NCBI RefSeq assembly: GCF_003018255.1
Contig: NZ_CP027440.1
Source of the DNA: Escherichia coli
Lineage (GTDB): Bacteria; Pseudomonadota; Gammaproteobacteria; Enterobacterales; Enterobacteriaceae
Strand: one strand, 5' to 3'
DNA length: 64,000 nucleotides
Shown piece by piece: positions 33,026 through 64,000 of this stretch (the stretch's first letter is position 1; the number at the start of each line of letters is the position of its first letter). Both the position numbers and the translations under genes were made by a program. Below the pieces are notes generated by a model. The model made no database searches. It saw only the letters and a program-made list of their open reading frames with translations, and was not told the DNA's origin.

Positions 33026-33179
33026 GACAGGATTTCCTTGTGTATGTGGGGTGCTCTGTGGCGCTCGGAGATGTGATTTGATTGAGGGTTTTACAGCGCG
33101 GACATTTTACTTCCAGATAACTGAAACTGGCCCGTGCCAGTAGCTTATTGCAGTGTCGGCACCGTATGTTTCGATACAT
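32979..33179 (-). CDS. com: Com-like zinc-finger translational activator of mom
   Basis: [14 protein letters not shown]...EVKCPRCKT... aligns with Mu Com (IRCKNCNKLL...IRCPRCK) from memory; overlaps the mom start. Confidence 0.7.
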
Positions 33180-33585
33180 GGCCGCATAACCTCCTGCTTT
33201 GTTGTTGATGCCTTTCTCATGCAATCGATCGACAAAAACGATCGATTCGATTTGTTTAATTGATACAACAAATAGATTTAAAAGTCATCAACAATGATTC
33301 AGGGCGGTGATTATTTACTTAAAGAAACGAAGAGTTAGGTGGTGAAAACGATCATAAAATGATCATTTTATTGACTTTTTATACAGTGAAGGTAGGATCG
33401 CGCGTATATGTAGTATGTTTCAAATCAACAGGATACTACATAAAAGGGAAACCCAGCATAGCTGGAACTATGCTGGGTCAATCTGTAAAAACTTGCATCA
33501 ATGCTTTACTTCGAGCTCGTGGCGTATCCTATGATATTCCCCGGTCTCCTGTAAAGCAGAGATGCATAAAAAGGAGATCTTTATC
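33180..33585. promoter_or_regulatory. AT-rich divergent control region upstream of com-mom with five GATC sites (33227, 33240, 33350, 33361, 33396)
   Basis: GATC density well above the roughly 1 per 256 bp expected by chance; position matches the methylation-sensitive region upstream of mom in Mu. Confidence 0.45.
33452..33477 (-). terminator. 10-bp-stem hairpin followed on the minus strand by a T-rich run
   Basis: cccagcatag ctggaa ctatgctggg; minus-strand downstream sequence tttcccttttta. Confidence 0.45.
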
Positions 33586-36361: not shown

Positions 36362-36460
36362 AATAATCAGCCTGTTCCTGAATAAACTGAATTATCATAT
36401 CCACAGACCGATAAACGCCATTTTGCGTTAATTCAGTAAAGGCCCAACAAAGAGAGCGTC

Positions 36461-37021
36461 TTATTTTTCCGAAACGCTCGCAGGATAATAACGATAAAGG
36501 GTTGAAAGACCGATATCAAAAATAAGTGCCACCTGTCTTCGACTGACACCCCCGGCCAGTAAACGCCCGACCTGCTCGTATTGTTCCTGCGTGAGACGGC
36601 GGGGTCTGCCGCCGGTTCGTCCCCTTTCACGGGCAGCTGCAAGACCAGCCCGTGTCCGTTCGACAATTAATTCACGCTCCATTTCTGCCAGCGCACCCAT
36701 TATGTGAAAAAAGAAACGCCCCATGGGGGTTGACGTATCAATGTTGTCAGTAAGACTACGAAAATTTATCCCCTGTTGCTGTAATTCATCTGTCAGCGCA
36801 ACAAGGTGGCGCATACTGCGCCCCAGCCTGTCCAGTTTCCAGACCATCAGTGTGTCACCGGGTTTTAGTTTCTTCAGTGCCCGCTTCAGTCCCGGCCGCT
36901 GTGTCGTTTTACCACTCATTTTGTCTTCAAAAATCTGCTCACATCCTGCACATTCCAGCGCATTTCTTTGTAAACCGGTGTTCTGGTCATTTGTTGATAC
37001 GCGTATATAGCCAATCAGCAT
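36461..37021 (-). CDS. gin: serine DNA invertase of the Gin/Hin/Cin/Pin family
   Basis: MLIGYIRVSTNDQNTGLQRNAL...GRFFFHIMGALAEMERELI aligns closely with Mu Gin (recalled); adjacent to the invertible segment. Confidence 0.9.
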   Translation of the reverse strand: MLIGYIRVSTNDQNTGLQRNALECAGCEQIFEDKMSGKTTQRPGLKRALKKLKPGDTLMVWKLDRLGRSMRHLVALTDELQQQGINFRSLTDNIDTSTPMGRFFFHIMGALAEMERELIVERTRAGLAAARERGRTGGRPRRLTQEQYEQVGRLLAGGVSRRQVALIFDIGLSTLYRYYPASVSEK

Positions 37022-37076
37022 GTATTTACCTTCCTTAAAAAGAGGTGAAAATGCCTTTTAAAACAGATATACGGTA

Positions 37077-37102
37077 TCCCTGAAAACCTCGGTTTACGGG
37101 AA
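37077..37102. promoter_or_regulatory. gix-like recombination site, gin-proximal (crossover core TC at 37089-37090)
   Basis: tccctgaaaacc tc ggtttacgggaa matches the gix/hix consensus TTATCCAAAACC TC GGTTTACAGGAA (recalled). Confidence 0.65.
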
Positions 37103-37471
37103 ACGGTAAATAAGGCTGCTGATGCCCTGCCATCGGGTGGAACCGCCGTGGCAGCAAACAGACTCGCCACCCCAAGAAATATTAATGGCGTTCCTTTTGA
37201 CGGAACGCAGGATATCAACATCACGTCAGGAATGACGCAGTCAACCGCAGATGGCCGGTATGTACAGAATGTTCAGCTTGGAGCACAGAGCTATCATTCA
37301 CCCGGAGGCAATGAAATATCATGGAATTACAGCGCACCTTCCGGTTGTATGCTTTCCGGTATTAACGTGCAGGAAACCGGCTCCCGGTCTGCGGACAATA
37401 TCGGTGGGGTCTATTATCGCCCGGTTCAGATTTATATTAATAATGCCTGGAGAACGGTAAGTTCAGTGTAA
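37091..37471 (+). CDS. promoterless alternative tail-fibre C-terminal cassette (S'v-like) inside the invertible segment
   Basis: Open frame from the gix core: GLRETVNKAADALPSGGTAVAANRLATPRNINGVPFDGTQDINITSGMTQS... shares its first 50 codons with the expressed fibre then diverges; ORF track 37148..37471. Confidence 0.6.
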   Translation, partial: GLRETVNKAADALPSGGTAVAANRLATPRNINGVPFDGTQDINITSGMTQSTADGRYVQNVQLGAQSYHSPGGNEISWNYSAPSGCMLSGINVQETGSRSADNIGGVYYRPVQIYINNAWRTVSSV

Positions 37472-37505
37472 ACCACAGAAAAGGGTGCTGAATGCACCCT
37501 CTGAA

Positions 37506-38027
37506 TTATTCCGGTTTTTCCGGCCAGGGAATCGCCTGGTAATGCCCCTCACTGGCAATATCATTAAAGTGCATTTCTTTAAGCTGTCGGATATACGCCA
37601 TCCAGCGCGTCAGCTGTAATTTATTTTCATCGCTAATCATGTCCAGTTTTAATTCTGTTTTCCAGTCATCCACGGTTTCGTTGGCTTCCTGGAGCAGCGA
37701 TGAGCGACGCTTTTCAGCAACCGTCTTCCAGTTTACCGGCACCTTTGATATCAGGCCATCAGAAAACTGCCAGTTACCGTCAATATTCACACCTTCCGGC
37801 AGTTCGTCCACTTCAACAACAGTAAAACCTGCCGGATATAAAGCAGAGACATCTTCAGCAACAGAGCAGATAATACCCGTTACAGGCGAAATACAGAGTT
37901 TGTATTTCTTTGTGAAAAGCGGGATAGATTCATAAAAATCCCTTCCGTCCTCACTCTGGAAATACTGAACATCCTCACCATAGGGTTTGTGTTCCGGGTA
38001 ATATCGTTTTACGTTAATAAGCTCCAT
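37506..38027 (-). CDS. tail fibre assembly (chaperone) protein, U-like
   Basis: ORF track 37506..38138; start at MELINVKRYYPEH (AAGGTG RBS); downstream of the fibre gene. Confidence 0.7.
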   Translation of the reverse strand: MELINVKRYYPEHKPYGEDVQYFQSEDGRDFYESIPLFTKKYKLCISPVTGIICSVAEDVSALYPAGFTVVEVDELPEGVNIDGNWQFSDGLISKVPVNWKTVAEKRRSSLLQEANETVDDWKTELKLDMISDENKLQLTRWMAYIRQLKEMHFNDIASEGHYQAIPWPEKPE

Positions 38028-38106
38028 TATTTCACCTTGTTTTTGTTGAAAAGACAAAATCATCATATATTTATTCAGATAATCTGTTTTTTGAACTACT
38101 GCACTT

Positions 38107-38994
38107 TTATGCGCTGGAAGCTGTTTTCCACGAACCATCTATCAGAAACTGAACAGGTCGATAATATGCGGTTACCGTTGCATTACCATCACCAGCGACA
38201 TCAAGCCCTGTAAGTACGCATCCGTCAGGAACTTCAAAAATATTATATTGCATTCCAATCGTTGACCTTGAACCTCTTCGAATGCTTTGAACATAACGTG
38301 AGTCAGCCACAGACTGCGTCATCCCCGATGTAATATTTATATCCTGCGTTCCGTCAAATGGGACACCATTAATATTTCTTGGAGTGGCGAGTTTATTCGC
38401 TGCAACAGCCGTTCCGTTCGATGGCAGGGCATTCGCCGCCTTATTTACCGTTTCCCGTAAACCGACGTTATCGATAAAAGCGCCTTTATCCGGAATGTCT
38501 GCGCCGTTCTGCTCCCTGCGCAGGTAACGGTTATCACCTTCGCTTTTGCTGTAAACATCCAGATTATTACGGGCGGTTCCCGCATTCTCCAGGTCGGCAA
38601 GGTTCTGATCCTTCGCCAGAGCATTAACGTCACCGGGACCAAGACTGTTTTTTGTGGCAAGCGCCCCAAGACCAAGATAACCACGGGCAAGACGCTGGGC
38701 TTCCGCACCGGCATCAGCAATTTCTTTCAGGTTGTTTTTCCGGGAAAAGGCATTCGCAGCGATAATGGCTTTAATGGACAGCGTAAGCTGGTTTAACTGC
38801 GCCTTATCCGGCTGAATACTGGCTTCAGCCAGAATATTCAGCAGTTCGGCCTGGAGAATATTCAGCCAGTCCTGACCAATCCAGCTGATACCTTTTTGTC
38901 CGTCACCTTCGGTAAACCAGGTGGTGGTATTACTCTGCGCCGGTGCCAGCGCAGGCATATTCGCCACGCCGGAATTATTATCAACATGAAACAT
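38107..38994 (-). CDS. tail fibre protein (S-like); constant part outside and variable C-terminus inside the invertible segment
   Basis: 295-aa ORF; the gix site at 38452-38477 lies in-frame inside the coding sequence (codons FIDNVGLRE). Confidence 0.75.
   Translation of the reverse strand: MFHVDNNSGVANMPALAPAQSNTTTWFTEGDGQKGISWIGQDWLNILQAELLNILAEASIQPDKAQLNQLTLSIKAIIAANAFSRKNNLKEIADAGAEAQRLARGYLGLGALATKNSLGPGDVNALAKDQNLADLENAGTARNNLDVYSKSEGDNRYLRREQNGADIPDKGAFIDNVGLRETVNKAANALPSNGTAVAANKLATPRNINGVPFDGTQDINITSGMTQSVADSRYVQSIRRGSRSTIGMQYNIFEVPDGCVLTGLDVAGDGNATVTAYYRPVQFLIDGSWKTASSA
38452..38477. promoter_or_regulatory. gix-like recombination site, distal (core GA at 38464-38465), inside the tail-fibre gene
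   Basis: ttcccgtaaacc ga cgttatcgataa; same left half and core as the inverted site at 37077-37102. Confidence 0.65.
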
Positions 38995-51234: not shown

Positions 51235-52358
51235 TATTGCATTTCCTCTTTCATTTTCAGGAACTCGGCTTCGGTTTTACCCAGCAGTTTGGCGGCCGCG
51301 ATATCTTCAGCCGACAGCACAGCGGTGGCAGTCTTTTTATCCGGCACGGTCACGGTGTCGGTCTGAAGGCCGGTCAGGGCCGCAACCGGCTGGCGGGCGT
51401 CAAGCTGTGCAGAAAGTGCCGCAACGCCAATCTGCCCGCCCAGTTGTTCCAGATAGCCGCGTTCGCTTTTGAAGATGCGCCCTTCGGATTCAGCCTTGTC
51501 CAGCACCTGCTCCAGCGTGGTGCTGCCGTGCTGCGCCGACAGCGCAACGTATTCGGTACGCAGGGCGTTATACGTTTCAACGGGCACGTATTTCGTCAGA
51601 TCAATACTGCCGCCAGCCGGTGTGCCTTTTGCGGTTTCCAGCTCTGCCGACAGACTGGCGACCTGTGTTTTCAGGTTGTCGTGTGCATCCGCACGGGTTT
51701 TGATCCCGGTGAGGGCAGACAGCGCCGCCGTGCCCAGCTCCGGCGTAAATTCGTCACCGTCAGCCACGGTCAGACCGAGCGCCGTCAGCAACTGGCGTAA
51801 TTGCTCATTCATGGAGGTATCCTTTAAAGGAGGGTTTAAGGCGTTATAAAGGTCATCCGCCGACAGTGCGGCGACAGGATTCATGCCGGTCAGACCGGGG
51901 TCACCGGTAATAGCCAGCATCCGAAGTTCGACAGGTTCGCCGGTGCTCTCGTCATAGCCAATCACCGGTGAAAACCAGGGGAATTCGTTATTACGCAGAT
52001 GTTCAAGGGCCGGAGGGTTCCACTTCGGGCGCACCTCGAAACCTCGCTCTTCACTGAAGCGAAAATTCTCCGGTGAGGCCATCACAAAACCGGCAGCCGG
52101 TGCCGGATGTCCCTCAATCAGGGTCTGGTGGTTGTAGTCAATTTTCACCGGCTGATTGAGCGCCACAACACGGGAGACCATGCGCTCAACGGCTGCATGG
52201 TTGATCAGCCAGCCCTCGGCCGGTTTTTCCGGGCGACCGTCACGGGCCTTTACCCGACCGGCTGGCATGATCTGACACCAGTCACCGTCCCCGTCTGCGG
52301 ACAGGCTGATGGCATTCAGAATGGCATAAGCAAGTTTGGGCGTGTTTTTCGTCTTCAT
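51234..52358 (-). CDS. head maturation protease with nested scaffold (Mu I/Z-like)
   Basis: 374-aa ORF, Ala-rich coiled C-terminal half. Confidence 0.7.
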   Translation of the reverse strand: MKTKNTPKLAYAILNAISLSADGDGDWCQIMPAGRVKARDGRPEKPAEGWLINHAAVERMVSRVVALNQPVKIDYNHQTLIEGHPAPAAGFVMASPENFRFSEERGFEVRPKWNPPALEHLRNNEFPWFSPVIGYDESTGEPVELRMLAITGDPGLTGMNPVAALSADDLYNALNPPLKDTSMNEQLRQLLTALGLTVADGDEFTPELGTAALSALTGIKTRADAHDNLKTQVASLSAELETAKGTPAGGSIDLTKYVPVETYNALRTEYVALSAQHGSTTLEQVLDKAESEGRIFKSERGYLEQLGGQIGVAALSAQLDARQPVAALTGLQTDTVTVPDKKTATAVLSAEDIAAAKLLGKTEAEFLKMKEEMQ

Positions 52359-52534
52359 TCCGGCAGCATAGGCCGGGAATTTTCAGGGCGGGTTTTGCGG
52401 GATTTCAGGAAGTGCTTCCAGGGGAAAAATACAAAGGCGCTTCACGCAGATTTTAAAGCCCGTTAAATACAGGTTAGAAAATCACGACACGCGCCTGAAG
52501 GGGGTAAGGTAATGCATTTGCATACCTTAAACAA
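52359..52534 (-). promoter_or_regulatory. 176-bp non-coding gap upstream of the protease gene with imperfect palindrome aggtaatgcatttgcatacctt; candidate activator-dependent late promoter
   Basis: The only sizeable gap inside the otherwise tightly packed head operon. Confidence 0.3.
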
Positions 52535-53008
52535 TTAAGGCGTTTCTGTGGCCTTTTTAAAGCGTTTTCTGATTTCGTCCATGATCTCCTGCTCTGCCAC
52601 CTGATCAAAGCCCATATACGGACGTGCACCAATGGCCGCCGGTCCCGGCGGCATACCTGGCAGGCCACCCCACTGATGAATGGCCGCATAAGGCTCATTT
52701 GATCCAATCAGCGCCCAGGTGTCGCCATAATCCGTGGTCAGGCGTCGGGCCAGATCGCCGTTCAGCGTCAGGATTTTGCCGGGCATGTATCCCTTACGGG
52801 TACGCCACTTGCGGTAAGGATCTGACCAGTCATGCCAGCGTTCGCCGTCCGGCTCTTTTTCCTGTTCAAACGCCATTTCTGACGATGACAGAAGGCTGGA
52901 CGCCACACTGCGGGCCAGGTCTTTTCCGCCACCCACAAACTGAAGCCGGGCAAAGACCCGCTGGAGACGCGTAACGTCAACAACGACGGCGGCATCAATG
53001 GATGACAT
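52535..53008 (-). CDS. virion morphogenesis protein (Mu G-like)
   Basis: 157-aa ORF between F-like and I-like genes. Confidence 0.6.
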   Translation of the reverse strand: MSSIDAAVVVDVTRLQRVFARLQFVGGGKDLARSVASSLLSSSEMAFEQEKEPDGERWHDWSDPYRKWRTRKGYMPGKILTLNGDLARRLTTDYGDTWALIGSNEPYAAIHQWGGLPGMPPGPAAIGARPYMGFDQVAEQEIMDEIRKRFKKATETP

Positions 53009-53129
53009 ATTGCCTCCGTATAAAATATGAATATAAAATAAGCAGGCGGTCAGTGTACGCTTAACTGGTAAAGTCGGTGCCTGCCTCCGGGTGGATCATG
53101 TATGCGGGTTCGACCCCCGCCACTGACCG

Positions 53130-54461
53130 TTAATCAATATCTCCTTCCAGTACCTCAAGCATTCCGCCCCGGATATCCGATTTCAGCTTATCCATATTGA
53201 TAACCCGGTAAGCATTAACAATCACATCCAGTTTATCCGGCTGACGCTTCAGGCTGTACGGTGCATTAACGGCAATCTGCACACTGCCATCCTGATTTTC
53301 CACGATATACATCAGATTGTTGTGCCGTTTGTCCCACAGTACCGCTTTTGGCCTTGCCAGCATTGCCGGTAAGCGCCCGAAATCCTCCGGTGTCAGGGCG
53401 ATACCGTCATTCTGATGTTTCATGCTGTCCGCATGGAGCACATTTTTACCGCTCATCGCCAGCAGGCGGGCCGGTGGCGTTCCCGTCCGGCTTTCCACCG
53501 CCTGCGCAATGCTTTCGGTCATAAAGCCCAGCGTGCGGATATCGTTACCGCCTCGCCGGGTTTTCATGATGTTTTTTGCCCAGATGCGGAACGCCAGCTG
53601 CCGCTCCGGGCTGTTGTTCATCTCCTGAACCACCATTTCCCGTAACGCCGGGCTTTTCACCTCGATCAACTTGCGGAGCAGCGCCTGGTCTGTGCCGAAC
53701 GCCGCCGAACCGGGGTTATATGACCAGCCCACATCCGGTGTCATGGTTCTGGTGCCATCTGAATATGTGGTCACCGGCATTTCTCTGACTTCTCCGGTCT
53801 GCTTATCCACGCCAGCCTCAACATTGCGGGTGGAAAGATGATCCTGACCGGATGAAACGGATAACCCCATTGCATCCAGACGGGTCTGAGACAATGGCCG
53901 GACACGGCAGCGGCAGTTCCAGCCATTGGGTGGGTAGTGTGTATTCCAGAACGGATCGTCATAGCGGAATACCAGACCGTTAAGGGCGGAATGCGCCGGG
54001 CGGGTGCGGCTGTCCATCACCGCCACATACTGCCAGAACGGATGCGTGTCCGTGTTGTTCATCATCTGCGTGTAACGCCCGGCATTGTAAGCCACGCGGG
54101 TGTTCACGTTGTAAATCAGCGCCAGACGGCGGGGACAGCCCAGCTGCACTTCTTCTGCGTTACCGGCGCTGTCCACCACAATCTGCTTTCCCCACCATCC
54201 CAGCTTTTGCAGGCGGGGGGTCAGTGTGCGGATAAATGCTTTCTGTGAAATCCCCTCATCAATGGCCCGTTGCACTTCCGCCTGTAGTGTGGTCAGTACG
54301 TCCAGGCGTGCCACTTTTGCCGCCGTGAACGAACGGGCATGAACATCCGCGTCTGTTTCGAACCAGTTCCAGCTGATATGCGCCCCTTTGGCGCGGAAGT
54401 ATGCCACCGCCTCTTTTGAGGGAAGCGTGGCGGCATAACCTAAATCAATCCCCTGTGCCAT
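53130..54461 (-). CDS. head morphogenesis protein (Mu F-like)
   Basis: 443-aa ORF downstream of portal. Confidence 0.65.
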   Translation of the reverse strand: MAQGIDLGYAATLPSKEAVAYFRAKGAHISWNWFETDADVHARSFTAAKVARLDVLTTLQAEVQRAIDEGISQKAFIRTLTPRLQKLGWWGKQIVVDSAGNAEEVQLGCPRRLALIYNVNTRVAYNAGRYTQMMNNTDTHPFWQYVAVMDSRTRPAHSALNGLVFRYDDPFWNTHYPPNGWNCRCRVRPLSQTRLDAMGLSVSSGQDHLSTRNVEAGVDKQTGEVREMPVTTYSDGTRTMTPDVGWSYNPGSAAFGTDQALLRKLIEVKSPALREMVVQEMNNSPERQLAFRIWAKNIMKTRRGGNDIRTLGFMTESIAQAVESRTGTPPARLLAMSGKNVLHADSMKHQNDGIALTPEDFGRLPAMLARPKAVLWDKRHNNLMYIVENQDGSVQIAVNAPYSLKRQPDKLDVIVNAYRVINMDKLKSDIRGGMLEVLEGDID

Positions 54462-56043
54462 CCAGCATCCCCTTCATTTCCGCAGCAAACATGGCATCAC
54501 TGAGCAGCGTCATCAGGCGGGAATCATCCATTTCACGGTAAAGGGCAGGCAGGTCTGCCAGTGCCTCCGCCAGCCCCCGCGTTCTGATGGCATCAATGAC
54601 CGGCTCCAGTACCGGGTCGATGGCCTCCTGTAACCGGCGGGCAGGCACCGCATCCCCCATGTCGTCCAGTTCATCTCGGGGGCTGCTTTTCGCTTCCGGC
54701 AGTCTGGCAGCCAGCGCTGTCTGCTCTGTCTTCTCCTGTTTTTCCGGTGGCATCTCTTTGTCTGTCTGAGCAGGTTCATTGCCACTCTGACGGACACGGA
54801 AGATGGCTTCACCGGGGGCAGGCTGTGGAATACCGGTCTGCTCCCGTACCCAGGGATCAGGAATATCCATCCCCGTACTGAGCTGCATCACCGCACTGGT
54901 GATTTTGGTGATATCCCCCGGCTCTTTTGTCTGGAAACAGATACGCGGCAGGCGACGGATATCAATGGCGTGGGCGGTGTTCAGGGCATACAGCGGATAC
55001 ACCAGATCGCGGTTCAGCGTGGCGGCCAGCTGACGTAAATCAGAATCCCTGATTTCCCGGCGCACCTCGTTATGCACTTCACCCAGCGAACGTGCGCCCT
55101 TGTCTCCGGCTTCCGTGGTCAGCGTGCCGCCGAGGATAGCTTTGGAGATGGAACGCTCCCCCCACGAAATCATGGTTTCAAACGGATCGGCCTGACCGTT
55201 CGCTGCCGCCTGAAACTCCAGCGACATCCCGGCCGGGATGATCCCGCCTGTACGTCGCCCGATATCCATCACCGCCCGCATCAGGGCGCTTTTCTGCTCC
55301 GGTGTTGCCCCGGAGGGGTATTTACCGACCTTCATCGGCAGGCCGTACACCTCCAGAAATTCAGCCAGATCGCGCACGGAATAGTTTTTGAAAATGAACG
55401 GCCAGATAAGCGTTCTGACAAGCCCCGTCGCACCACCGTAGCCGGTGCGTGAACGTGACTGATGCACTATCCAGCCAAAGGGCTGAAACGCCACCCCGGC
55501 ATGGCTGCCGTCACGCAGCCGCAGTTCGCTCAAATCATCCGGGTTAAGGCAGAAATGCCCGCTGTCACGCCAGCGGATGGCGCGGATGATGTGCATTTTA
55601 CCGAGCATCCCGTGCTCAATCTCCATGCAGGAATAGCCTTTCAGGATGGCATCGGTGGCATCAAACAGCATGGCATCAAACCAGTCGGCGGAATGCAGAT
55701 ATTCGTCGAGCATTTCCGCGTCCTTTTTCTCATTCGCGCTGGCGTTCGGGGGCGGCTCAATACTCCAGGGCACGCCCTGAATGGCAAGACGTCGCTTGCC
55801 CAGCTCTGCAAAAAGGTGGGTATCCTTTTCTTCAATGTCAGCGGCCAGATCGGACTGGGCAATCAGATCGCCACGTTCAGCCCCGCGAAGGCACTGTGCC
55901 GCCCGGTTCGGGGTGATACCCGAGGCCGGATGTTCAATATAACGGCTGGCAATCTGCGGAATATCCAGCGCGGCGCTCTGCATCTCCGGGTCAAAGGAGA
56001 AAGGTTTTCCGTCAAGATCAATTATACGTCCCACTACCAGCAC
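54445..56043 (-). CDS. portal protein (Mu gp29-like)
   Basis: 532-aa ORF directly downstream of terminase large subunit. Confidence 0.7.
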   Translation of the reverse strand: MLVVGRIIDLDGKPFSFDPEMQSAALDIPQIASRYIEHPASGITPNRAAQCLRGAERGDLIAQSDLAADIEEKDTHLFAELGKRRLAIQGVPWSIEPPPNASANEKKDAEMLDEYLHSADWFDAMLFDATDAILKGYSCMEIEHGMLGKMHIIRAIRWRDSGHFCLNPDDLSELRLRDGSHAGVAFQPFGWIVHQSRSRTGYGGATGLVRTLIWPFIFKNYSVRDLAEFLEVYGLPMKVGKYPSGATPEQKSALMRAVMDIGRRTGGIIPAGMSLEFQAAANGQADPFETMISWGERSISKAILGGTLTTEAGDKGARSLGEVHNEVRREIRDSDLRQLAATLNRDLVYPLYALNTAHAIDIRRLPRICFQTKEPGDITKITSAVMQLSTGMDIPDPWVREQTGIPQPAPGEAIFRVRQSGNEPAQTDKEMPPEKQEKTEQTALAARLPEAKSSPRDELDDMGDAVPARRLQEAIDPVLEPVIDAIRTRGLAEALADLPALYREMDDSRLMTLLSDAMFAAEMKGMLDGTGD

Positions 56044-57698
56044 CCCCGATCAAATTCATGATATGCCTCATCGTCATCACGATAACCGCCCTCCATGGCC
56101 CGCGACCGCTCCGGCAGCGCCTGACAGGCTGATTCATCCAGGATGAAGCCCTCCATGTATGACGCCCGGTTTGCCATACAGAGCGCCACGGCAAAATCGC
56201 CATGGCGGCGGGCGTTCACAGCCGTTGCGTTCTGGTCCTTCGTACGCCCCTTGTCAATTTGCGGGATACCGTTCACCACCTTCACATGGCGCAAATCATC
56301 AAGCGTGGTCTGATGGCGGGCGACGAGGATATTCTGATCCTCAAACTCGGCCTTCAGTTTTGGCATCCACTCGCCGTACCACTTCGGCGATAACATCACG
56401 CAGTCGATGATGTCCGGGCCAAAGGCCAGCAGCGCGGCTTCGGCCAGATAGCCGCCGTTACCGGTGGCGTCGAACGCCGCACCGACCAGCGCCGGAACGC
56501 GGGTCAGGATGTACATCATCACCTGCTCCTGCTGGGCATACGGCAGGTTGCGCAGCTCCACGCGAAACACCTCGCGTTTTGCCAGGGATTCAGTGATTTC
56601 CAGCAGCACAAAGCAGGAGAGGTCACCGATGCGGGCAAAGTCTTCCCCGAAGCTGAAGCGGGAACGGGGATTTAACGCCTCTAAAAGCGGTTTTAAATGT
56701 TCTTCACACCAGGTTAAAACCTCCGATTCACGCAGCCATGCGGCACGGCTGATGAAGTCGTCCGGGGCTTCAAACGTCAGAATCGGGATGTCGCGGAGCA
56801 TCGCCATTTCAATAAGCGCGTGAGGAATATAGGCACCGCCGGATTTTTTCGGGATACAGCCGTATTCCTCGTCGGCATCCTCACGGGTCGGGGCGTTTTT
56901 GTAGAGATCATCACGCCACTTCTGCTCGCTTTCCGGTGACCATTCGCGGCCGGTGACATAACAGATACGACGGTACAGCCCGTCCGCAATGGCATCATCC
57001 AGGGTAATGCGGTGGACGCTGTAATCCTTGCGCCCCTCGCGGGCTTCCTGAATGTACTGATTAAACAGATTATCGACGCCGTTATGCGTGGAGATAATAC
57101 GCACGCGCGCGCCCCACATGGTGAGCGCCATTGCCGCCTTGAGAAGCTCATCCAGTGACTCGTGGAACGCGGCTTCATCAATCACCACATCCCCCTGAAG
57201 GCCGCGCAGGTTTGACGGACGGGAAGACAGTGCCTGAATTTTGAATCCACTGTTCGGAAAGCGGATCATGTAGGTCAGAATTTCTTCTTTTTTATCCCGA
57301 TCCCAGAAGGTCTGCTCATACACATCAGCATCTGCCAGCTGGTTAAAGGCACGGGAGAACAGTGCGCAGGCAGAAATATATTCCAGCGCCATCTCCTGCT
57401 TTGACCCCACATAAAACACATTGCGGCCACCACGCCGCTTAGGCTTTGCGGCGGTAATGACGTTACGCCCGGCTTCCGCCCAGGTAAGCCCGGTGCGGCG
57501 GGATTTTTCCGCGATGCAGACCTCGCTTTCATCCTCAAACCAGCGGGCCTGATAATCCAGAAATACCGGCATATCACCGGGCAAATCAAGGCTGTCCGGC
57601 ACATCCACGCCCAGCAGGGCTTTTTCACCGGCCAGATCAATTTTGCGGGTGGAGACGGTATTCGTCAGTAAGGGGGAGAGTTCTTCGGCGTTATTCAT
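56034..57698 (-). CDS. terminase large subunit (Mu gp28-like)
   Basis: 554-aa ORF; size and position upstream of portal. Confidence 0.75.
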   Translation of the reverse strand: MNNAEELSPLLTNTVSTRKIDLAGEKALLGVDVPDSLDLPGDMPVFLDYQARWFEDESEVCIAEKSRRTGLTWAEAGRNVITAAKPKRRGGRNVFYVGSKQEMALEYISACALFSRAFNQLADADVYEQTFWDRDKKEEILTYMIRFPNSGFKIQALSSRPSNLRGLQGDVVIDEAAFHESLDELLKAAMALTMWGARVRIISTHNGVDNLFNQYIQEAREGRKDYSVHRITLDDAIADGLYRRICYVTGREWSPESEQKWRDDLYKNAPTREDADEEYGCIPKKSGGAYIPHALIEMAMLRDIPILTFEAPDDFISRAAWLRESEVLTWCEEHLKPLLEALNPRSRFSFGEDFARIGDLSCFVLLEITESLAKREVFRVELRNLPYAQQEQVMMYILTRVPALVGAAFDATGNGGYLAEAALLAFGPDIIDCVMLSPKWYGEWMPKLKAEFEDQNILVARHQTTLDDLRHVKVVNGIPQIDKGRTKDQNATAVNARRHGDFAVALCMANRASYMEGFILDESACQALPERSRAMEGGYRDDDEAYHEFDRGCW

Positions 57699-58279
57699 CA
57701 GGCTTTACCCAACAGAATCCCCTTAATACGGGACTCAAGCTGTTCACTCATCCCGTCCACGCCGCGCAGCTCGTCGGTGACGGCGTTTGCCATCTCTTCA
57801 GCAAATGCAGCCCGGATTTCTTTTTCACGCTTAATGCTGCGCTCGGCGGCACTTTCCGCACGCTGTGCTGACAGGAGGATGTCCTTAATAAGACGCATAT
57901 CCACGTCGCTGTCACTGTTCAGGGATTCGGTCGCGGCACGCAGACGGCGGTACATCAGGGCGCGGGACATCTCCAGAATCAGCGCTGTGGTTTCACCGGT
58001 TGGCTTGTCTCCCAGTTCGGCCATCATGGCTTTTGTCTGCTCGCGTAAATCACGCAGGTTACGGGCAATCAGCTCATTACGGGAGGCTTCCCGGCTGATG
58101 GCCGCCGGTGAAAGCTGCTGCTCTTCCGGCAGGCCCGCCTCACGGATCAGACGGTTGATTTCCTCGCGTATCTGGACCTGCGTCAGACGTTTTTCACGCA
58201 GCATTTCCAGCAGTGGCTTACGGATGCTGTCGGGGAGCAAATCCACCTTGCGCACGCGTCCACGCGTCGGCTTGTCCAT
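57698..58279 (-). CDS. terminase small subunit-like / DNA-binding protein (Mu gp27-like)
   Basis: 193-aa charged helical ORF immediately upstream of the large terminase. Confidence 0.5.
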   Translation of the reverse strand: MDKPTRGRVRKVDLLPDSIRKPLLEMLREKRLTQVQIREEINRLIREAGLPEEQQLSPAAISREASRNELIARNLRDLREQTKAMMAELGDKPTGETTALILEMSRALMYRRLRAATESLNSDSDVDMRLIKDILLSAQRAESAAERSIKREKEIRAAFAEEMANAVTDELRGVDGMSEQLESRIKGILLGKA

Positions 58280-58281
58280 CG

Positions 58282-58572
58282 TTACCCCCTTGCGCGTGGT
58301 TTCTTCACACCCGGAACGCTGGCGCGACCTTCCGCCACATCCTGACCCCGGCCGGTCAGTTCGGCGATGAAATAACCGTTAACGAGCGTGCGCTTACGCA
58401 CCAGTCCCTGCTCGGCAAGCCAGGCAATGTGGGTGTGAACGGTGTCGCGGGACACGCGGTGGCCGTAATCATCCAGACAGTCCTGGAGCACGGATTCACC
58501 CAGTTCACCGTTGTAATCTGCCAGCGACCGCAGAATGACCAGACGCTGATCTTCAGTAATGAAATCACTCAT
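58282..58572 (-). CDS. hypothetical protein (Mu gp26-like)
   Basis: 96-aa ORF. Confidence 0.4.
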   Translation of the reverse strand: MSDFITEDQRLVILRSLADYNGELGESVLQDCLDDYGHRVSRDTVHTHIAWLAEQGLVRKRTLVNGYFIAELTGRGQDVAEGRASVPGVKKPRARG

Positions 58573-58877
58573 TGCGTTTTTTTCCTTACAGCCTGCTCCA
58601 GCAGCAGTTCGTTCTGATAGGAGACAGAGCGGAGCGTGGCGTTCGTGGTTTTCAGTTCACCCCGCAGGGTCACGATTTCCACATTCAGACGGTTGACCTC
58701 GGCTTCTGTCGGCAGTGACGACAGGCGGGTTTCCACCTTCTCAACGCGGTCGGAGAGTTTTTCAAAGGCCTCGCGGGGGACAAACGTTTTGCGCATCAGC
58801 GCCATGAATATCCCGCCAGCGGTTGCCGTCGCCGAAAGGATCGGCACAACATAATCTTTAACGATGCTGACCCACAT
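58569..58877 (-). CDS. membrane protein with one TM helix and coiled coil; candidate endolysin-release (releasin-like) lysis factor
   Basis: 102-aa ORF, N-terminal hydrophobic segment ILSATATAGGIFMALM, sits in the lysis-proximal block. Confidence 0.35.
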   Translation of the reverse strand: MWVSIVKDYVVPILSATATAGGIFMALMRKTFVPREAFEKLSDRVEKVETRLSSLPTEAEVNRLNVEIVTLRGELKTTNATLRSVSYQNELLLEQAVRKKTQ

Positions 58878-59085
58878 GACGGGCCTCCATGATGTTCTGG
58901 CAGTTCACACAACGGATGGCATCCGGCACAGCAACAAGACGTGCGGCGGGGATCTCTCCGCCACAGTCCGCGCAGACACGTCTGCCCGGAGCATCCATTG
59001 CCCGGCGCTTACGTGTCAGCCGGTTACAAAGGGCGCGTTCTGATCCCCGCTCCATCACAGCCTGAGCACGATCTGAATCATCCAT
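58858..59085 (-). CDS. TraR/DksA-family C4 zinc-finger protein
   Basis: CADCGGEIPAARLVAVPDAIRCVNC motif (CxxC-17-CxxC); start taken at MDDSDRAQ. Confidence 0.6.
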   Translation of the reverse strand: MDDSDRAQAVMERGSERALCNRLTRKRRAMDAPGRRVCADCGGEIPAARLVAVPDAIRCVNCQNIMEARHVGQHR

Positions 59086-59095
59086 ACCTTTTTCC

Positions 59096-59467
59096 TTACT
59101 TCGTCTTTCCTGCCGGAACAGCAGGCGTTCCGGCCATATCAGTAAATTCATGTTGTCGCCGCGCCTCCAGACGACGAATACTGGCCTTGTCCACGTTGCA
59201 GTTCTTGATCACCGCCAGCAGTTGCAGGTTGTAAGTGACCGATGCCCCAAACGTGAACGGCTCCGGCGCAGGAGGGACCAGGCAGTCAGCCAGCCATTCA
59301 GCGGGGATCGGCACCGGCTTCACAGGCACGTATTTCACAGACGGCCCGGCGCACCCGATCAGCCACATCATCAGGAACAGGGGCAGAGGCCGCAGGCACT
59401 GCCGCCAGCGACCGGCGGACAACGCTCTGCTGCCCCTCGCTGTGCTGAATGTTCTGTTGTTTTTCAT
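59096..59467 (-). CDS. o-spanin (Rz1-like) lipoprotein, out of frame within and beyond the Rz-like gene
   Basis: Lipobox LIGC followed by a proline-rich mature region; read from the alternative frame of ORF 59096..59662. Confidence 0.5.
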   Translation of the reverse strand: MKNNRTFSTARGSRALSAGRWRQCLRPLPLFLMMWLIGCAGPSVKYVPVKPVPIPAEWLADCLVPPAPEPFTFGASVTYNLQLLAVIKNCNVDKASIRRLEARRQHEFTDMAGTPAVPAGKTK

Positions 59468-59648
59468 TCGTGGCCGCCTCACTGATTTGTGAAATGAGTT
59501 GCAGGGTGTGCTGCTGATTTGCCAGCACCTGACGCGCCTCATCCCGCTCACGCACAAGCACCTGATTATTGTCTTCAAGGCGCTGCGTCTTCTGGTGCAT
59601 TCCCCATATAGCGGCAACCAGTACAGCGATAATCCCCAGCGCCGCCAT
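59298..59648 (-). CDS. i-spanin (Rz-like), start uncertain
   Basis: N-terminal TM helix then charged coiled coil; ORF track 59298..59819 overlaps lys, so an internal start was chosen. Confidence 0.5.
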   Translation of the reverse strand: MAALGIIAVLVAAIWGMHQKTQRLEDNNQVLVRERDEARQVLANQQHTLQLISQISEAATNEKQQNIQHSEGQQSVVRRSLAAVPAASAPVPDDVADRVRRAVCEIRACEAGADPR

Positions 59649-59760
59649 GCACGCCCCGGCAATCAGGGCCGGTAAGGCATTATTCACCGCAGCCACAGGA
59701 CACCCCGTAACAGCAGTACCGCACACAGCAGCGCTATCATGAGCGGTCGCCAGAAGCGGT

Positions 59761-60261
59761 TCAGACTTTCGGCAAGTCGTAGCGACATAACCATTCATCC
59801 GCCGAACGGCGGGCCTCAAGGCCGGGGAGTTTCACCCCCTTTGAATAAATCCAGCGGATATACTGCTTACAGGACGCGGGCATCTGCCCGGCATTGATCA
59901 GGCGCAGAAGCGTGGAGTTGCGAAAGTTCGTTTCACCGGCCCAGAAGATCCACGAAGCCAGCGCCACCGTCTGACCACGGGTAAGCGGCACCTGAACACG
60001 CCGATCAATGGCCGCAAAGGCCCATTTCATGTCCTTTTCCAGTAGTTCCAGGCATTCTTCATCTGTCAGGGTCATACCCGGTTTCACATCCGGGCCGGTA
60101 TGGCCGTAACAGATGGTGGGTGTACCGGAGGGATCGATATACGTGGAGTTTTCTTTCCCTTCCCAGTAACCGGTGTAATGCGTGGCAATCGTGAACGTCC
60201 CGGCACCGGCCAGAACAAGGGCAATCAGCTTTTTACGCAGTGGTGCGGGGAGTTTTGGCAT
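59761..60261 (-). CDS. SAR endolysin (T4-lysozyme-like, GH24)
   Basis: N-terminal Gly/Ala-rich weak TM (LIALVLAGAGTFTIA) then E...D...T catalytic spacing (YWEGKE..YIDPSGTPTICYG). Confidence 0.7.
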   Translation of the reverse strand: MPKLPAPLRKKLIALVLAGAGTFTIATHYTGYWEGKENSTYIDPSGTPTICYGHTGPDVKPGMTLTDEECLELLEKDMKWAFAAIDRRVQVPLTRGQTVALASWIFWAGETNFRNSTLLRLINAGQMPASCKQYIRWIYSKGVKLPGLEARRSADEWLCRYDLPKV

Positions 60262-60332
60262 TGTTACGCTGTCTCATGATGTTCTCTGAGTCAGCGTAAC
60301 GGTGAAGGAGAGGCGGCAGGCTTTGCGGAATA

Positions 60333-60758
60333 TCAGAAAAGTGGCGGTTGCGTTCTTGCCAGATGCAGACGGCGCTGTTCGCGTATGACGGTATAAATCT
60401 GGGTTTCTGACATCCGGTAATGGCGGCGAAGGGATTCAATTTTCTCGCCCCGGTCCCAGCGCGAAAATATCTCATTGTTTCGCAGCTCGGCAAAGAGAGA
60501 TTCCCCGACCGGCAGGTAATAACCCCGTCCGCCCATATAGGCTGCCTGAGCCGCAGCCACCTTGCGTGCCAGTTTACCGGCCAGTACCGGCTCAATCCCC
60601 TGACGCTGAAGTTCTGCGCCGGTGACTTCAACCAGTTCTGACAGGGTCCGCGGCCAGTTCTTTTTGAGAACATCATCAGGGATGTCATCAAGGCGGTCGA
60701 TAAGGGCGTGCAGTTGCTCACTGTCACCACCAAACATGCTCATCTGAGTTTCTGCCAT
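60333..60758 (-). CDS. Mor/C-family transcriptional activator
   Basis: C-terminal region GGRGYYLP...IYTVIREQRRL resembles Mu Mor (GGGQVYIP...VYKAIRRMRRL, recalled); immediately upstream of the lysis gene. Confidence 0.65.
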   Translation of the reverse strand: MAETQMSMFGGDSEQLHALIDRLDDIPDDVLKKNWPRTLSELVEVTGAELQRQGIEPVLAGKLARKVAAAQAAYMGGRGYYLPVGESLFAELRNNEIFSRWDRGEKIESLRRHYRMSETQIYTVIREQRRLHLARTQPPLF

Positions 60759-60827
60759 ATCAGCCTCCGGTTCTCGCGTTCCCGGTAAGTTTAAAATAAA
60801 AATCCCGCGTTGTGGCGGGATTTGGAG

Positions 60828-61337
60828 TTAACGGGGAAGTGATTTTTCATACTGCCTGCAAACGGCGTCATACCCCATCAGCGTGCGTTCGGGCATTCCC
60901 ATCGCGGCCAGCATTTTGCGGCGGTGCCATCGCTTGAGACGCTCCAGCACATCTGAGGCCAGGGCGGGGTGTTGCTCCAGCCACTGCCAGTTTGCCACAC
61001 CTTCGCCGCCGTTTTGCGCGGCCGTCTGCGATTTCACCCAGCGGTTAAGGGCGGTTTCCGCACCATCGGTGATAAAGCCCTGCCGGTGCATCACCTTCCA
61101 GATGGCGCGAATTTTGGCGGTCACCGTACCCGGTTTTAAGGCCCGGTTAACCGGGTTCTGACGCACTTTAAAACCGCGTTTTTTGAAAACATCCAGCACG
61201 CGGGATAACTCATCCGGTGACATATCCCGGCAGCTGGTTTTGCCGGTGGCTGCCAGCAGCGCGGATGTATAAGTCTCATCATCCAGGGCAAGCTCGCGCT
61301 TTGCCACATGAATGGCGGATATCAGTTTTCCTCTCAT
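60828..61337 (-). CDS. GemA-like (DUF1018) early regulatory protein
   Basis: 169-aa ORF with N-terminus LISAIHVAKRELALDDETY typical of the family; position before Mor/C as in Mu. Confidence 0.55.
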   Translation of the reverse strand: MRGKLISAIHVAKRELALDDETYTSALLAATGKTSCRDMSPDELSRVLDVFKKRGFKVRQNPVNRALKPGTVTAKIRAIWKVMHRQGFITDGAETALNRWVKSQTAAQNGGEGVANWQWLEQHPALASDVLERLKRWHRRKMLAAMGMPERTLMGYDAVCRQYEKSLPR

Positions 61338-61630
61338 ACCGTATTTACCTTTTTACGGACATGGAAAGCCTTTTCTGCCTCATCCCACCGGGCATGGTGT
61401 GTTGGTGGAATAATCATTATGTGCCAGCCATCTCTGGTTGTTATCCGGCAGAAAAATTCACCGCTATATAACACAATGGCCTGCTGAATGAGCGCATCAG
61501 CCGCCCGTTCAACCGGATGTCTTTTATCAAAAAAGCAGATGATTTTTCGACATAACCACCGGGTAATAACAAATGCGCCGAAAAAGGATGTGATATATAA
61601 GCACCAGAACAACAGAGAACTATTGTCCAT
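61334..61630 (-). CDS. hypothetical early-region membrane protein
   Basis: 98-aa ORF with hydrophobic N-terminus. Confidence 0.35.
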   Translation of the reverse strand: MDNSSLLFWCLYITSFFGAFVITRWLCRKIICFFDKRHPVERAADALIQQAIVLYSGEFFCRITTRDGWHIMIIPPTHHARWDEAEKAFHVRKKVNTV

Positions 61631-61817
61631 TATCTTTCTCCTTATTCAGTCTTCTGCGACATTCGGCACAGTCATCAGGGCTTTCAAATGTATCCGGCTC
61701 GCGATTATGAGCCAGATATAACCACCGCCTACATATACTGATATTATCGCCAGTTTTAAAAAAATGATGCTTCTTAGCCATCAGAGGGCGCGCCCATCCA
61801 GCGGGTAGACTATTCAT
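61620..61817 (-). CDS. hypothetical early-region protein
   Basis: 65-aa ORF. Confidence 0.3.
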   Translation of the reverse strand: MNSLPAGWARPLMAKKHHFFKTGDNISICRRWLYLAHNREPDTFESPDDCAECRRRLNKEKDNGQ

Positions 61818-62184
61818 TTGCTTTATCCTCCATACTGGACAAAATCATCTGTATTAATGTCGGGCGTGGAGATATACGCATTTCATTAAGCGTCTGAAGG
61901 GCAGCAACAGCTGCCTGTTTATCGGTGCCTTTGGCAATTTCCGCAAGAGAATGCACAATCCATAACGGACTTAACGCCACGACTGAATCCAGAATCATGT
62001 CATCCATAATAATTTCTGACACATCCCGCTTATCACATTCCTTATCCATAAAAGAAACGATTTTTTCCACATCTTCCGGTTTCATGCCTCCGGCGATAAG
62101 AAATTTGCGATACTCATAAGACGATCTTAATTCAATACTCATATTCATCTCCTGTAACTCTGACAAGGACGTGATTTTTCTCAT
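61810..62184 (-). CDS. hypothetical early-region protein
   Basis: 124-aa ORF, overlapping start/stop with neighbours. Confidence 0.4.
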   Translation of the reverse strand: MRKITSLSELQEMNMSIELRSSYEYRKFLIAGGMKPEDVEKIVSFMDKECDKRDVSEIIMDDMILDSVVALSPLWIVHSLAEIAKGTDKQAAVAALQTLNEMRISPRPTLIQMILSSMEDKANE

Positions 62185-62366
62185 TTATGTTTTCCAGTAA
62201 TACGGATATATATGTCGATAAGAAGATTCATAATAAACAGGAAGAGCGACATCCTGATAAAGAACCAAATATCTGGCATCATGGACAGGTTTCCTGTAAT
62301 CGCAAATATAACCCCCCCCCCCAACACCGGAACGAAAATTGCGAAAAATACAAGTCTCTTTATCAT
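62181..62366 (-). CDS. hypothetical small membrane protein
   Basis: 61-aa ORF with two hydrophobic segments. Confidence 0.35.
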   Translation of the reverse strand: MIKRLVFFAIFVPVLGGGVIFAITGNLSMMPDIWFFIRMSLFLFIMNLLIDIYIRITGKHK

Positions 62367-62914
62367 GGCGTTAACTCCCGTAATACAGCGTCCTCGGCAG
62401 TCCGGCGATGGTGATAAATAAAATTCACCGTACTCTCGGATAATTCAAATTTCTCGCCTATTTCCCGGAAGGTAAGACGTCGTGGTGATTCAGCATCCCG
62501 TAATTCACGAATAAGATGAACATCATCGTCAGGTATACGGGTGAAGGGCAGCAATTCTCCGTATTTTTTCATGCTTACGCCAATATATCGCGCCCGATTG
62601 TGGACAGAATCCCGGTCTCGCCCCAGATATTCTCCTATTTGCTTACCGGTCATCGTTCTGGCATTTTTTCGGATAAATTTATCTTCATCATGTTTAAATC
62701 TTGGACGTTTGCATTTGAGCAACTCCGGGTAAGTACCGCGTAATAAAACAATCCGGTTATGTACACCCCAGAAACTTCTTTTTACCCTGACAGCAATATC
62801 CTTAACCGGGGTGGATGGATAAAGCGCAATCAGCAGCGCATCTTCTTCAGGTGTCCACGCACGGACATGAGCAGGTGCCTGACCTTTTCGCCCCATGGGT
62901 TGTAAAATCATCAT
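62363..62914 (-). CDS. hypothetical early-region protein with several helix-turn-helix-like segments
   Basis: 183-aa basic ORF with HTH-like stretches (TGKQIGEYLGRDRDSVHNRARYIG, LTFREIGEKFELSESTVNFI). Confidence 0.4.
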   Translation of the reverse strand: MMILQPMGRKGQAPAHVRAWTPEEDALLIALYPSTPVKDIAVRVKRSFWGVHNRIVLLRGTYPELLKCKRPRFKHDEDKFIRKNARTMTGKQIGEYLGRDRDSVHNRARYIGVSMKKYGELLPFTRIPDDDVHLIRELRDAESPRRLTFREIGEKFELSESTVNFIYHHRRTAEDAVLRELTP

Positions 62915-62917
62915 ACA

Positions 62918-63433
62918 TCACCCCCTGACTCGCTTTTCAGCAGCATAAAACTCATCAGACAGAATTTCGGTCATTTTCTGATTTGCGGGTTTTACGCCGC
63001 ACTCAAGGTAAATCACATCGTCAACGCAGAACCACTTCACAGGGCCAAACATGATTGCCGAGAAATCAATACCCAGCCAGAACAACAGTGCATCGGTTCT
63101 GGCATACGTGACGGGCGAATATTCACGCCACAGACTGTTAAGTTCGTCAGAGGCAACGCGCAGGGCTTTGGGAATACGTGATGTGCGCGGTGTGCAGCTC
63201 CAGCCATTCGACGCAGTCGGTTTTCGCCATAAGTCGCGATGAAAAGGATATTTGTCATCCATAAAGCGCAGCCCTTTAAAACAAAAGCCACTGATACCGG
63301 ATACAAATACCGACCGGCACGCAACATTCAGCACGGCCTCAAGGCGTTTTGCCTCATCCTTAACTTTCTGGCAGTCCTGCTGATATTTTTGCCACGCGGC
63401 CAGCGCGGAAGGGTTTGATGTTTTAAAGAACAT
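62918..63433 (-). CDS. hypothetical early-region protein
   Basis: 171-aa ORF. Confidence 0.4.
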   Translation of the reverse strand: MFFKTSNPSALAAWQKYQQDCQKVKDEAKRLEAVLNVACRSVFVSGISGFCFKGLRFMDDKYPFHRDLWRKPTASNGWSCTPRTSRIPKALRVASDELNSLWREYSPVTYARTDALLFWLGIDFSAIMFGPVKWFCVDDVIYLECGVKPANQKMTEILSDEFYAAEKRVRG

Positions 63434-63966
63434 TACGCCACCTCCGCAGATATCCCGGCAGGCGCGGCCGTCCGGTCAACAATCAGGTAACGCAGAACGC
63501 GCGAGGTGATATTCCAGCCGCTTAAACCGCAGATAATGACACCCAGGCGTATGTCGATATACGCCATCACAAACTGGGGCACGCCTTCTTTCATGGCCTG
63601 CTCATCAACTTCAGCCACCACATAAACGGTTTCACAGGTCAGAACGCCCTGAGCAAATTCCCACGCCATTGACGGAATATCATGCCCCTCAATCCACGGC
63701 AGGGATTTTCTGAAGCTGCACCACTGAACATCATCAGCCGCACCTTCCTGGCTGCATTTGCGACGAACCGGCTGCACCGGGCGGGGACGCGGAATATCAT
63801 AAAAACCGTTACATTCCGTCAGCACCCCGGCATCGACCGCATCACGCAGAAAATAAACCATCGAGGATGGCGGCATATTCATTTTTTCAGCCAGAATGCC
63901 GCAGGTCAGACGCCCGTAAATACTCAGCCAGTTTTTAACCCCTTCAAGCACTTTTGCATCAATCAT
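63433..63966 (-). CDS. hypothetical early-region protein with N-terminal winged-helix-like segment
   Basis: 177-aa ORF. Confidence 0.4.
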   Translation of the reverse strand: MIDAKVLEGVKNWLSIYGRLTCGILAEKMNMPPSSMVYFLRDAVDAGVLTECNGFYDIPRPRPVQPVRRKCSQEGAADDVQWCSFRKSLPWIEGHDIPSMAWEFAQGVLTCETVYVVAEVDEQAMKEGVPQFVMAYIDIRLGVIICGLSGWNITSRVLRYLIVDRTAAPAGISAEVA

Positions 63967-64000
63967 GAATTATTCCTCCGTCAGCGCCACATATTCAGAA

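Follow-up and report, generated by a model that had tools for sequence, protein, structure and literature searches.

A single gene of the Mor/C family of transcriptional activators was found in the Mu-like prophage carried by the window (the whole stretch of Escherichia coli DNA that was analysed, 64,000 nucleotides), and the protein that it encodes is, by sequence, the counterpart of the late activator C of phage Mu rather than of Mor or of a generic Mor/C protein. With no Mor and no middle operon, transcription would run in two tiers (early and late) against three in Mu. The activator is predicted to bind a box of ∼20 bp centred near -43.5, which would stand in for a -35 element as at the promoters of Mu C, and to turn on sigma-70 promoters before the lysis genes (box at 60339-60320) and the head gene I (box at 52411-52392). 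A 682-aa accessory ORF is probably driven in the same way through a box at 36439-36420. The whole explanation for Sp18-type prophages (a sole Mor/C protein that is the C counterpart, two tiers and box-driven late promoters) was given a probability of about 0.8.

The prophage occupies approximately 32160-64000 of the window, with its genes on the minus strand, and shares 97-99.5% identity with Sp18, a prophage of E. coli O157:H7 Sakai. Prophages with 99% identity or more over the queried region occur in 156 records of complete E. coli genomes, and of 5426 complete genomes of this species 230 contain an Sp18-type region. Insertion sites of the prophage are sorM in Sakai and betT in strain KS 470-1, and it was also found inside Stx phages. 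Sp18 has been described as apparently intact, with its DNA efficiently packaged (PMC2669165), and the O157 Mu-like prophage was rated as transposition-capable with strain-specific integration sites (PMC7430833). In the window the mom-side prophage end lies near 32159, and the flanking host sequence is unlike both the sorM (Sakai) and the betT (KS 470-1) sites. The invertible tail-fibre segment (37082-38465) is in the opposite orientation to that in Sakai Sp18 and KS 470-1. The order of elements in the region of interest is gemA, hairpin, activator and lys, and its three genes are as follows:

60828..61337, minus strand: GemA-like gene, last recognisable gene of the early operon (PF06252, E 3e-30)
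60333..60758, minus strand: sole Mor/C-family activator gene, 141 aa, ATG start, C-type (Pfam Mor)
59761..60261, minus strand: endolysin (phage lysozyme) gene, first late gene (PF00959, E 8e-37)

Between the gemA stop codon (60828) and the activator ATG (60758) lie 69 bp, which hold the hairpin as their sole content and no ORFs. The gap from the activator gene to the lysozyme ATG (60262-60332) is non-coding; the initial annotation had given these coordinates correctly, with a length of 72 bp that was amended to 71 bp.

The initial annotation had also reported a single Mor/C-family ORF between the GemA-like gene and the lysis gene, which was borne out by a match of 60333-60758 to the Pfam Mor profile (PF08765) with E 2.8e-32, the one match in a Mor-family profile search of the early-region ORFs. 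A second Mor/C homologue among the ORFs of 61334-63966, which by its own terms would have contradicted it, was not found there by Pfam (no Mor match at E<=0.1), phmmer or a family HMM. Phmmer was run with --max, starting from the two Mu proteins Mor and C and from the activator of the window, against all six-frame ORFs of at least 25 aa from the window and from the related O157 genome L001, and returned the activator alone, the next hit having E 0.28. The family HMM was built from 146 members obtained by an exhaustive search of 1.84 billion representatives. Over the six-frame ORFs of the window and L001 it gave E 4e-49 for the activator and E>=7.9 for everything else, and exactly one match each was obtained in L001 and in complete Sakai Sp18. 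Both activators of Mu were found with the same HMM as a positive control (C 4.5e-48, Mor 9.5e-34). Past base 64000 the early region continues for ∼7 kb, a part that was judged through L001 (99.65% identical over the shared 14 kb) and Sakai Sp18 (97.1%).

Two alternatives had been offered at the outset, a cascade reduced to one Mor/C step or a second activator lying outside the recognisable ORFs. The first was supported and the second was not, since six-frame profile searches of the whole prophage returned nothing further. By these searches the Sp18-type prophage does not contain the two paralogous Mor/C activators of a Mu-type three-tier cascade, and the middle operon (gp18-20 and C behind a Mor-dependent promoter) is absent from it.

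The sole other HTH protein of the early region is encoded by a 183-aa ORF at 62363-62914 (minus strand) and matches PHROG 323 ('transcriptional regulator, D5-like') with E 6e-59. This ORF was considered as a distant Mor/C homologue and rejected (hhalign probability 3.8%, from generic HTH similarity only; family HMM E 12). The protein contains three HTH-like repeats, and the 183-aa ORF is kept in an 84%-identity lineage from E. coli and Shigella (L004-L006). Mu gp9 carries the same RefSeq product name as PHROG 323, a comparison at the level of names.

The assignment of the activator to C was based on several comparisons. Residues 34-140 were aligned to positions 2-107 of the 107 positions of the Pfam Mor profile with a score of 111.3 bits (cut-off 24.9), and the protein matched PHROG 532 ('late transcriptional activator') with E 3e-45. 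BLASTP gave 39% identity and 105 bits against Mu C, and 27% identity and 51.6 bits against Mu Mor. The best tblastn matches of the activator on phage genomes were the C genes of Mu, D108 and SfMu. In a search of solved structures the best matches were 9L0X and 9VW8 ('Late transcription activator C', E 1e-26), with residues 15-141 aligned to chain 9L0X_G; Mor (1RR7) was matched with E 2e-9. A distance analysis gave Mu C and the window activator common neighbours and left Mu Mor with none close (nearest at 0.61), an isolation that is suggestive at most as the sample was seeded with a C-like query. The activator protein is identical to ECs_4961 of Sakai Sp18, which is annotated as 'positive regulator of late transcription protein'; the gene is thus an annotated C homologue already.

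Members of the Mor/C family are small proteins of about 100-150 aa in which the N-terminal half is acidic and the C-terminal half basic (PMC2582627). The net charges of the two halves are -4/+4 for the activator (141 aa), -3/+5 for Mu C and -9/+8 for Mor. The linker GGRxxYxP is present in the activator; across 60 sequences G76, Y81 and P83 do not vary, and among the 12 closest sequences this holds for G76, G77, R78, Y81 and P83. The beta-strand linker and the C-terminal helix-turn-helix of the family can both be recognised at the sequence level in the predicted protein. [quoted passage not shown] Two stretches of the translated activator resemble them, in sequence only:

60732..60746, minus strand: N-terminal clamp-binding-motif-like QMSMF (aa 5-9)
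60336..60350, minus strand: C-terminal clamp-binding-motif-like QPPLF (aa 137-141)

Each is one position off the consensus (S for D/E in QMSMF; P for D in QPPLF), and the aligned family members hardly vary at Q137 and L140. The two motifs may add a replication-dependent gate to late transcription, as reported for MuC (PMC12867686). With the activator taken as the C counterpart, the elements missing relative to Mu are mor, Pm and gp18-20.

Predicted late promoters were located by comparing the sequences upstream of lys and gene I. The best ungapped match between the lys upstream sequence and the gap between genes G and I was TTTCTGATATTCCGCAAAGC against TTCCTGAAATCCCGCAAAAC, with 16 of 20 bases identical; this was equalled in 0 of 200 shuffles. 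A motif common to the gaps, for which the initial annotation had suggested a search, was in this way found for 60262-60332 and 52359-52534 as a 20-bp box. The predicted promoter elements, including those of a weaker third site, are as follows:

60320..60339, minus strand: predicted activator box of the lysis promoter (TTTCTGATATTCCGCAAAGC) at -53..-34, overlapping the activator stop codon (match to the gene I box)
60293..60298, minus strand: predicted -10 of the lysis promoter, TACGCT, with a putative TSS near 60286 (spacing as at gene I)
52392..52411, minus strand: predicted activator box of the gene I (protease/scaffold) promoter (TTCCTGAAATCCCGCAAAAC) (match to the lys box)
52365..52370, minus strand: predicted -10 of the gene I promoter, TATGCT, with a putative TSS on or beside the start codon of I (52358) (spacing)
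36420..36439, minus strand: weaker third box (TTACTGAATTAACGCAAAAT) with TATGAT after it, at 78 nt from the start of the 682-aa ORF, as at lys (PWM)

The -10-like hexamers at lys and I both start 41 nt after the start of the box and both have A as the second and T as the sixth base. The two are weak as -10 elements, TACGCT matching the consensus at 3 of 6 positions. When the TSS was set 7 nt past the -10, the box fell at -53..-34 with its centre at -43.5. This geometry agrees with that published for the promoters of Mu C, where the site is a 16-bp element centred at -43.5 and Plys needs -52..-34 (PMC2582627). From this arrangement we infer both the start sites and the binding of the activator to the boxes. 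At the position of the box Mu Plys has TTTCCTGTCACCATAATCCCGCA; Mu PI contains TTTTCCCGCA. Each of these resembles the TTYCTG start and WWATYCCGCA core of the window boxes. GAGAAT was considered as the -10 of Mu Plys and dropped; TAGACT alone puts -52..-34 on TTTCCTGTCACCATAATCC, which aligns with the window box. The 71-bp gap before lys appears to be fully occupied by a predicted C-type promoter and is not too short, because this promoter fills it.

The arrangement was followed through related lineages. In the 84%-identity lineage the lys box is kept and its spacer to the -10 varies, while GTTACGCTG at the lys -10 is conserved in L005 and L006, as are the gene I box and -10. At the place equivalent to the gene I -10, L007 and L009 (of a 57%-identity lineage) have CACACT. 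The 57%-identity lineage and L010 have another box sequence, still common to lys and I. Across four lineages the box begins 76-78 nt ahead of the lys start codon and 51-54 nt ahead of that of I. A box of this kind, specific to its lineage yet fixed in position, would fit an activator site co-evolving with its activator.

A PWM was built from four boxes, and the coding strand of the prophage was scanned for a box with a suitably placed -10. The third site (36439-36420) scored 14.0 bits with a -10, against a null of 0.025 per shuffle (at least one such site in 5 of 200 shuffles), and its box is identical in L003. The 682-aa ORF behind it (34313-36361, minus strand; DUF6645, PHROG 143) lies between the invertase gene and com-mom, at a place that is empty in Mu, and may be a late-controlled accessory gene. 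No box was found by the PWM upstream of the tape-measure gene, upstream of gene P (best 2.0 bits) or upstream of com-mom (best 3.8 bits), and the shared motif that the initial annotation had suggested upstream of com was thus not recovered. At com-mom and P there are either fewer late promoters than in Mu or divergent ones that the model misses. Upstream of com (32979-33179), positions 33180-33300 on the minus strand contain a GATC cluster (AATCGATCG...GTCGATCGATT) reminiscent of the Dam sites that precede Mu Pmom; the segment bearing the C site and -10 of Mu seems to be absent or rearranged here.

In three lineages (window 52356-52370, minus strand; L009 about 15080-15093; L010 about 18200-18216) the putative TSS of gene I coincides with the A of the start codon or is adjacent to it, which is unusual, and no Shine-Dalgarno sequence is visible. 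Either the gene I mRNA is leaderless or the call of the start codon or of the -10 is off.

Between the F-like and G-like genes, the plus strand at 53049-53128 resembles the T-arm and acceptor end of a tRNA (GGTTCGACCCCCGCC), and RefSeq has 'tRNA-OTHER' at the equivalent place in NZ_CP038309. ARAGORN and Rfam searches over 52300-61400 gave no tRNA and no RNA family match. The element is probably a tRNA-like remnant.

The gap between gemA and the activator gene contains the following element, called by a terminator scan:

60800..60823, minus strand: terminator-like hairpin AAATCCCGC-CACAAC-GCGGGATTT, followed by TTATTTT (to about 60793)

The hairpin has a 9-bp stem and an RNA folding energy of -13.5 kcal/mol (z -5.1); 0 of 200 shuffles folded as well. 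On its predicted fold it is a canonical intrinsic terminator. A promoter scan of the gemA-activator gap called no sigma-70 promoter. The hairpin is kept in L004-L006 and L009 and is present twice in L010 (9376-9420 and 9935-9975), each time as AAATCCCGC...GCGGGATTT followed by a T-run and TATACT. One of the L010 copies stands after gemA and the other after an unrelated 140-aa ORF directly before the activator gene, and the hairpin behaves there like a portable boundary element. The 140-aa ORF was considered as a cryptic Mor and rejected (hhalign probability 0.19%; unlike Mu gp19). As the simplest account, which is preferred, we infer that the activator gene is fed by read-through of this conserved terminator, which would make synthesis of the activator low and delayed.

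Alternatively, positive autoregulation could take the place of Mor. The hairpin would then be an early terminator and also a weak Mor/C-type promoter of the activator gene, so that a trickle of activator would turn on its own gene and then the late promoters. This was judged rather unlikely. The core of the gene I box recurs as the hairpin arm AAATCCCGC, as autoregulation would have it, but the distal half of the box is missing at the hairpin, so that the complete 20-bp model gives a score of only 1.2 bits there. In five hairpins, including that of the window (TATTTT, 60798-60793), that of L009 and both of L010, a TAnnnT hexamer lies 21-23 nt after the first C of the core, and the same core-to--10 spacing is found for the AAWYCC core in the lys and I promoters of the window, Mu Plys and Mu Pm (TTAATCC to TATCCT). 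Such hexamers arise readily by chance in the T/A-rich tracts after terminators, however, the lineages compared are related, and Pmp9 breaks the spacing. At Mu Pm the Mor site does overlap a terminator-like hairpin after mor, but the hairpin sequence studied here is constant across lineages with differing late boxes, which suits a plain terminator. In the Mu-like prophage L019, three opposite-strand genes (8312-9887), one with a weak TIR-domain match, lie between gemA and the activator gene, an insert that may be a defence-type island. The L019 activator is cut off from the early operon by these genes and hence needs its own promoter, a point in favour of autoregulation.

Placement of the hairpin dyad centre at -43.5 was tried and rejected; it implies a -10 at 60780-60775 (AACGCG) and a TSS inside the Shine-Dalgarno sequence. 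The L005 lineage has TGTAAT at the spot of the AACGCG of the window. In an extended form of autoregulation, the hairpin would double as a weak promoter, a self-amplifying and possibly clamp-gated activator would give a Mor-like delay, and mor and Pm of Mu would be a later duplication of an ancestral self-activating unit; this is speculative and was considered quite unlikely.

It is more doubtful still that a non-homologous early regulator does the work of Mor, with three tiers kept. The 183-aa multi-HTH protein of 62363-62914 would be a candidate on its C-terminal HTH (weak Pfam HTH matches), its PHROG 323 match (E 6e-59) and its retention in L004-L006, and such a regulator would supply a trigger for activator expression. 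The protein is nevertheless no relative of Mor/C (hhalign 3.8%; HMM E 12), and Mu, whose gp9 bears the same 'D5-like' product name (a name-level comparison), still needs Mor. No promoter or binding site for such a regulator was found between gemA and the activator gene.

Among the elements sampled, a layout with one activator is the common state of Mu-like phages, and ten Mu-like elements besides the Sp18 type were counted as carrying one copy. One family-HMM match was obtained in each of L004-L006 (the 84%-identity lineage) and L007-L009 (the 57%-identity lineage), in L010-L011, whose activator is 57% identical to Mu C, and in L012-L013, a metagenomic element that is a weak example with little sequence upstream of the gene. 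One match each was likewise obtained in Pseudomonas phage B3, Burkholderia phage BcepMu, Pasteurella phage Pmp9 and Shewanella phage MuM16-1, and L019 has one Pfam Mor gene. The loci L004-L006, L007-L008, L010-L011 and L019 span the full early region back to the repressor. Annotation tables of KS10 and of the D3112 group list a single Mor after GemA. A literature search gave no explicit statement that one Mor/C gene is usual for Mu-like phages, which the annotation tables imply. Two Mor/C activators were found in Mu alone among the sampled elements, and the relay from Mor to C appears to be confined to Mu and its closest relatives.

The initial annotation had offered a 'collapsed' cascade as one alternative, a word that is apt for the one step and less so for the suggestion of something unusual, since every Mu-like element examined outside Muvirus has one copy. 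Insertion differences between strains, together with the published description of Sp18 as apparently intact and packaged, make a simple loss-of-function deletion unlikely. That the prophage is a deletion derivative crippled in its regulation by loss of mor and the middle operon was taken to be highly improbable: ∼0.8 kb (mor, Pm, gp18-20) is indeed absent between gemA and the C-type gene relative to Mu, but the same layout recurs in the 230 of 5426 complete E. coli genomes, in the 84%- and 57%-identity lineages and in others, Sp18 is reported to be intact and efficiently packaged (PMC2669165), and the prophage sits at different sites in different strains.

For annotation, a pair of Mor and C is not to be expected in Mu-like prophages, one C-type gene after gemA being the norm among those sampled, and the textbook three-tier cascade is, within the same sample, specific to Mu's own genus. 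For the Sp18-type prophages of EHEC O157, predicted promoter coordinates are provided for the lysis and head genes, together with a possible late-controlled accessory gene. These additions, namely the promoter boxes and the question of timing for a single activator behind a terminator, are modest and would not surprise a specialist.

The closest named system is Mu C (gp21; PDB 9L0X, 9VW8), which belongs to the same Pfam family, has 140 aa against 141 here and is 39% identical over the whole protein. The GGRxxY(L/I)P linker and the C-terminal HTH region are common to Mu C and the activator, and the Q..(L/M)F pentapeptides at both termini resemble each other in sequence. Both genes stand directly upstream of the endolysin gene. 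The predicted target promoters have no -35 element and a box at about -53..-34, whose TTYCTG start and WWATYCCGCA core are like those of Mu Plys (ATAATCCCGCA) and PI (TTTTCCCGCA). In contrast to Mu C, whose gene lies in the order gemA-mor-gp18-gp19-gp20-C-lys, the activator gene is preceded by neither a Mor-dependent middle promoter nor gp18-20 and follows gemA and a terminator hairpin. The box sequence also differs in detail from the Mu C promoters, and none was found at com-mom or P.

Mu Mor (gp17; PDB 1RR7, 9L0Y) is of the same family and fold class and, like the activator, is encoded by the first Mor/C gene after gemA. In Mu, mor overlaps gemA by 4 nt and lies in the early operon, whereas 69 bp and a terminator intervene here. 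The single target of Mor is Pm, upstream of C, and the Sp18-type prophage has no downstream C. In Mor the N-terminal motif has no Q and the last residues are QPSLL, where the activator has QMSMF and QPPLF.

The gene itself does not differ from ECs_4961 of Sakai Sp18. The two prophages are inserted at different sites, and a 1.8-kb segment (35433-37242) that takes in gin and the first part of the 682-aa ORF has only 88% identity to that of Sakai Sp18 and KS 470-1. B3 ORF1, BcepMu gp01, KS10 gp27, ORF14 of the D3112 group and MuM16-1 p13 are, as here, each present in one copy directly after GemA and before the late genes. In B3, BcepMu and MuM16-1 the activator gene abuts or overlaps gemA like Mu mor, with no terminator between them. 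The single Mor/C proteins of these other Mu-like phages are far more distant (HMM E 1e-15 to 6e-41).
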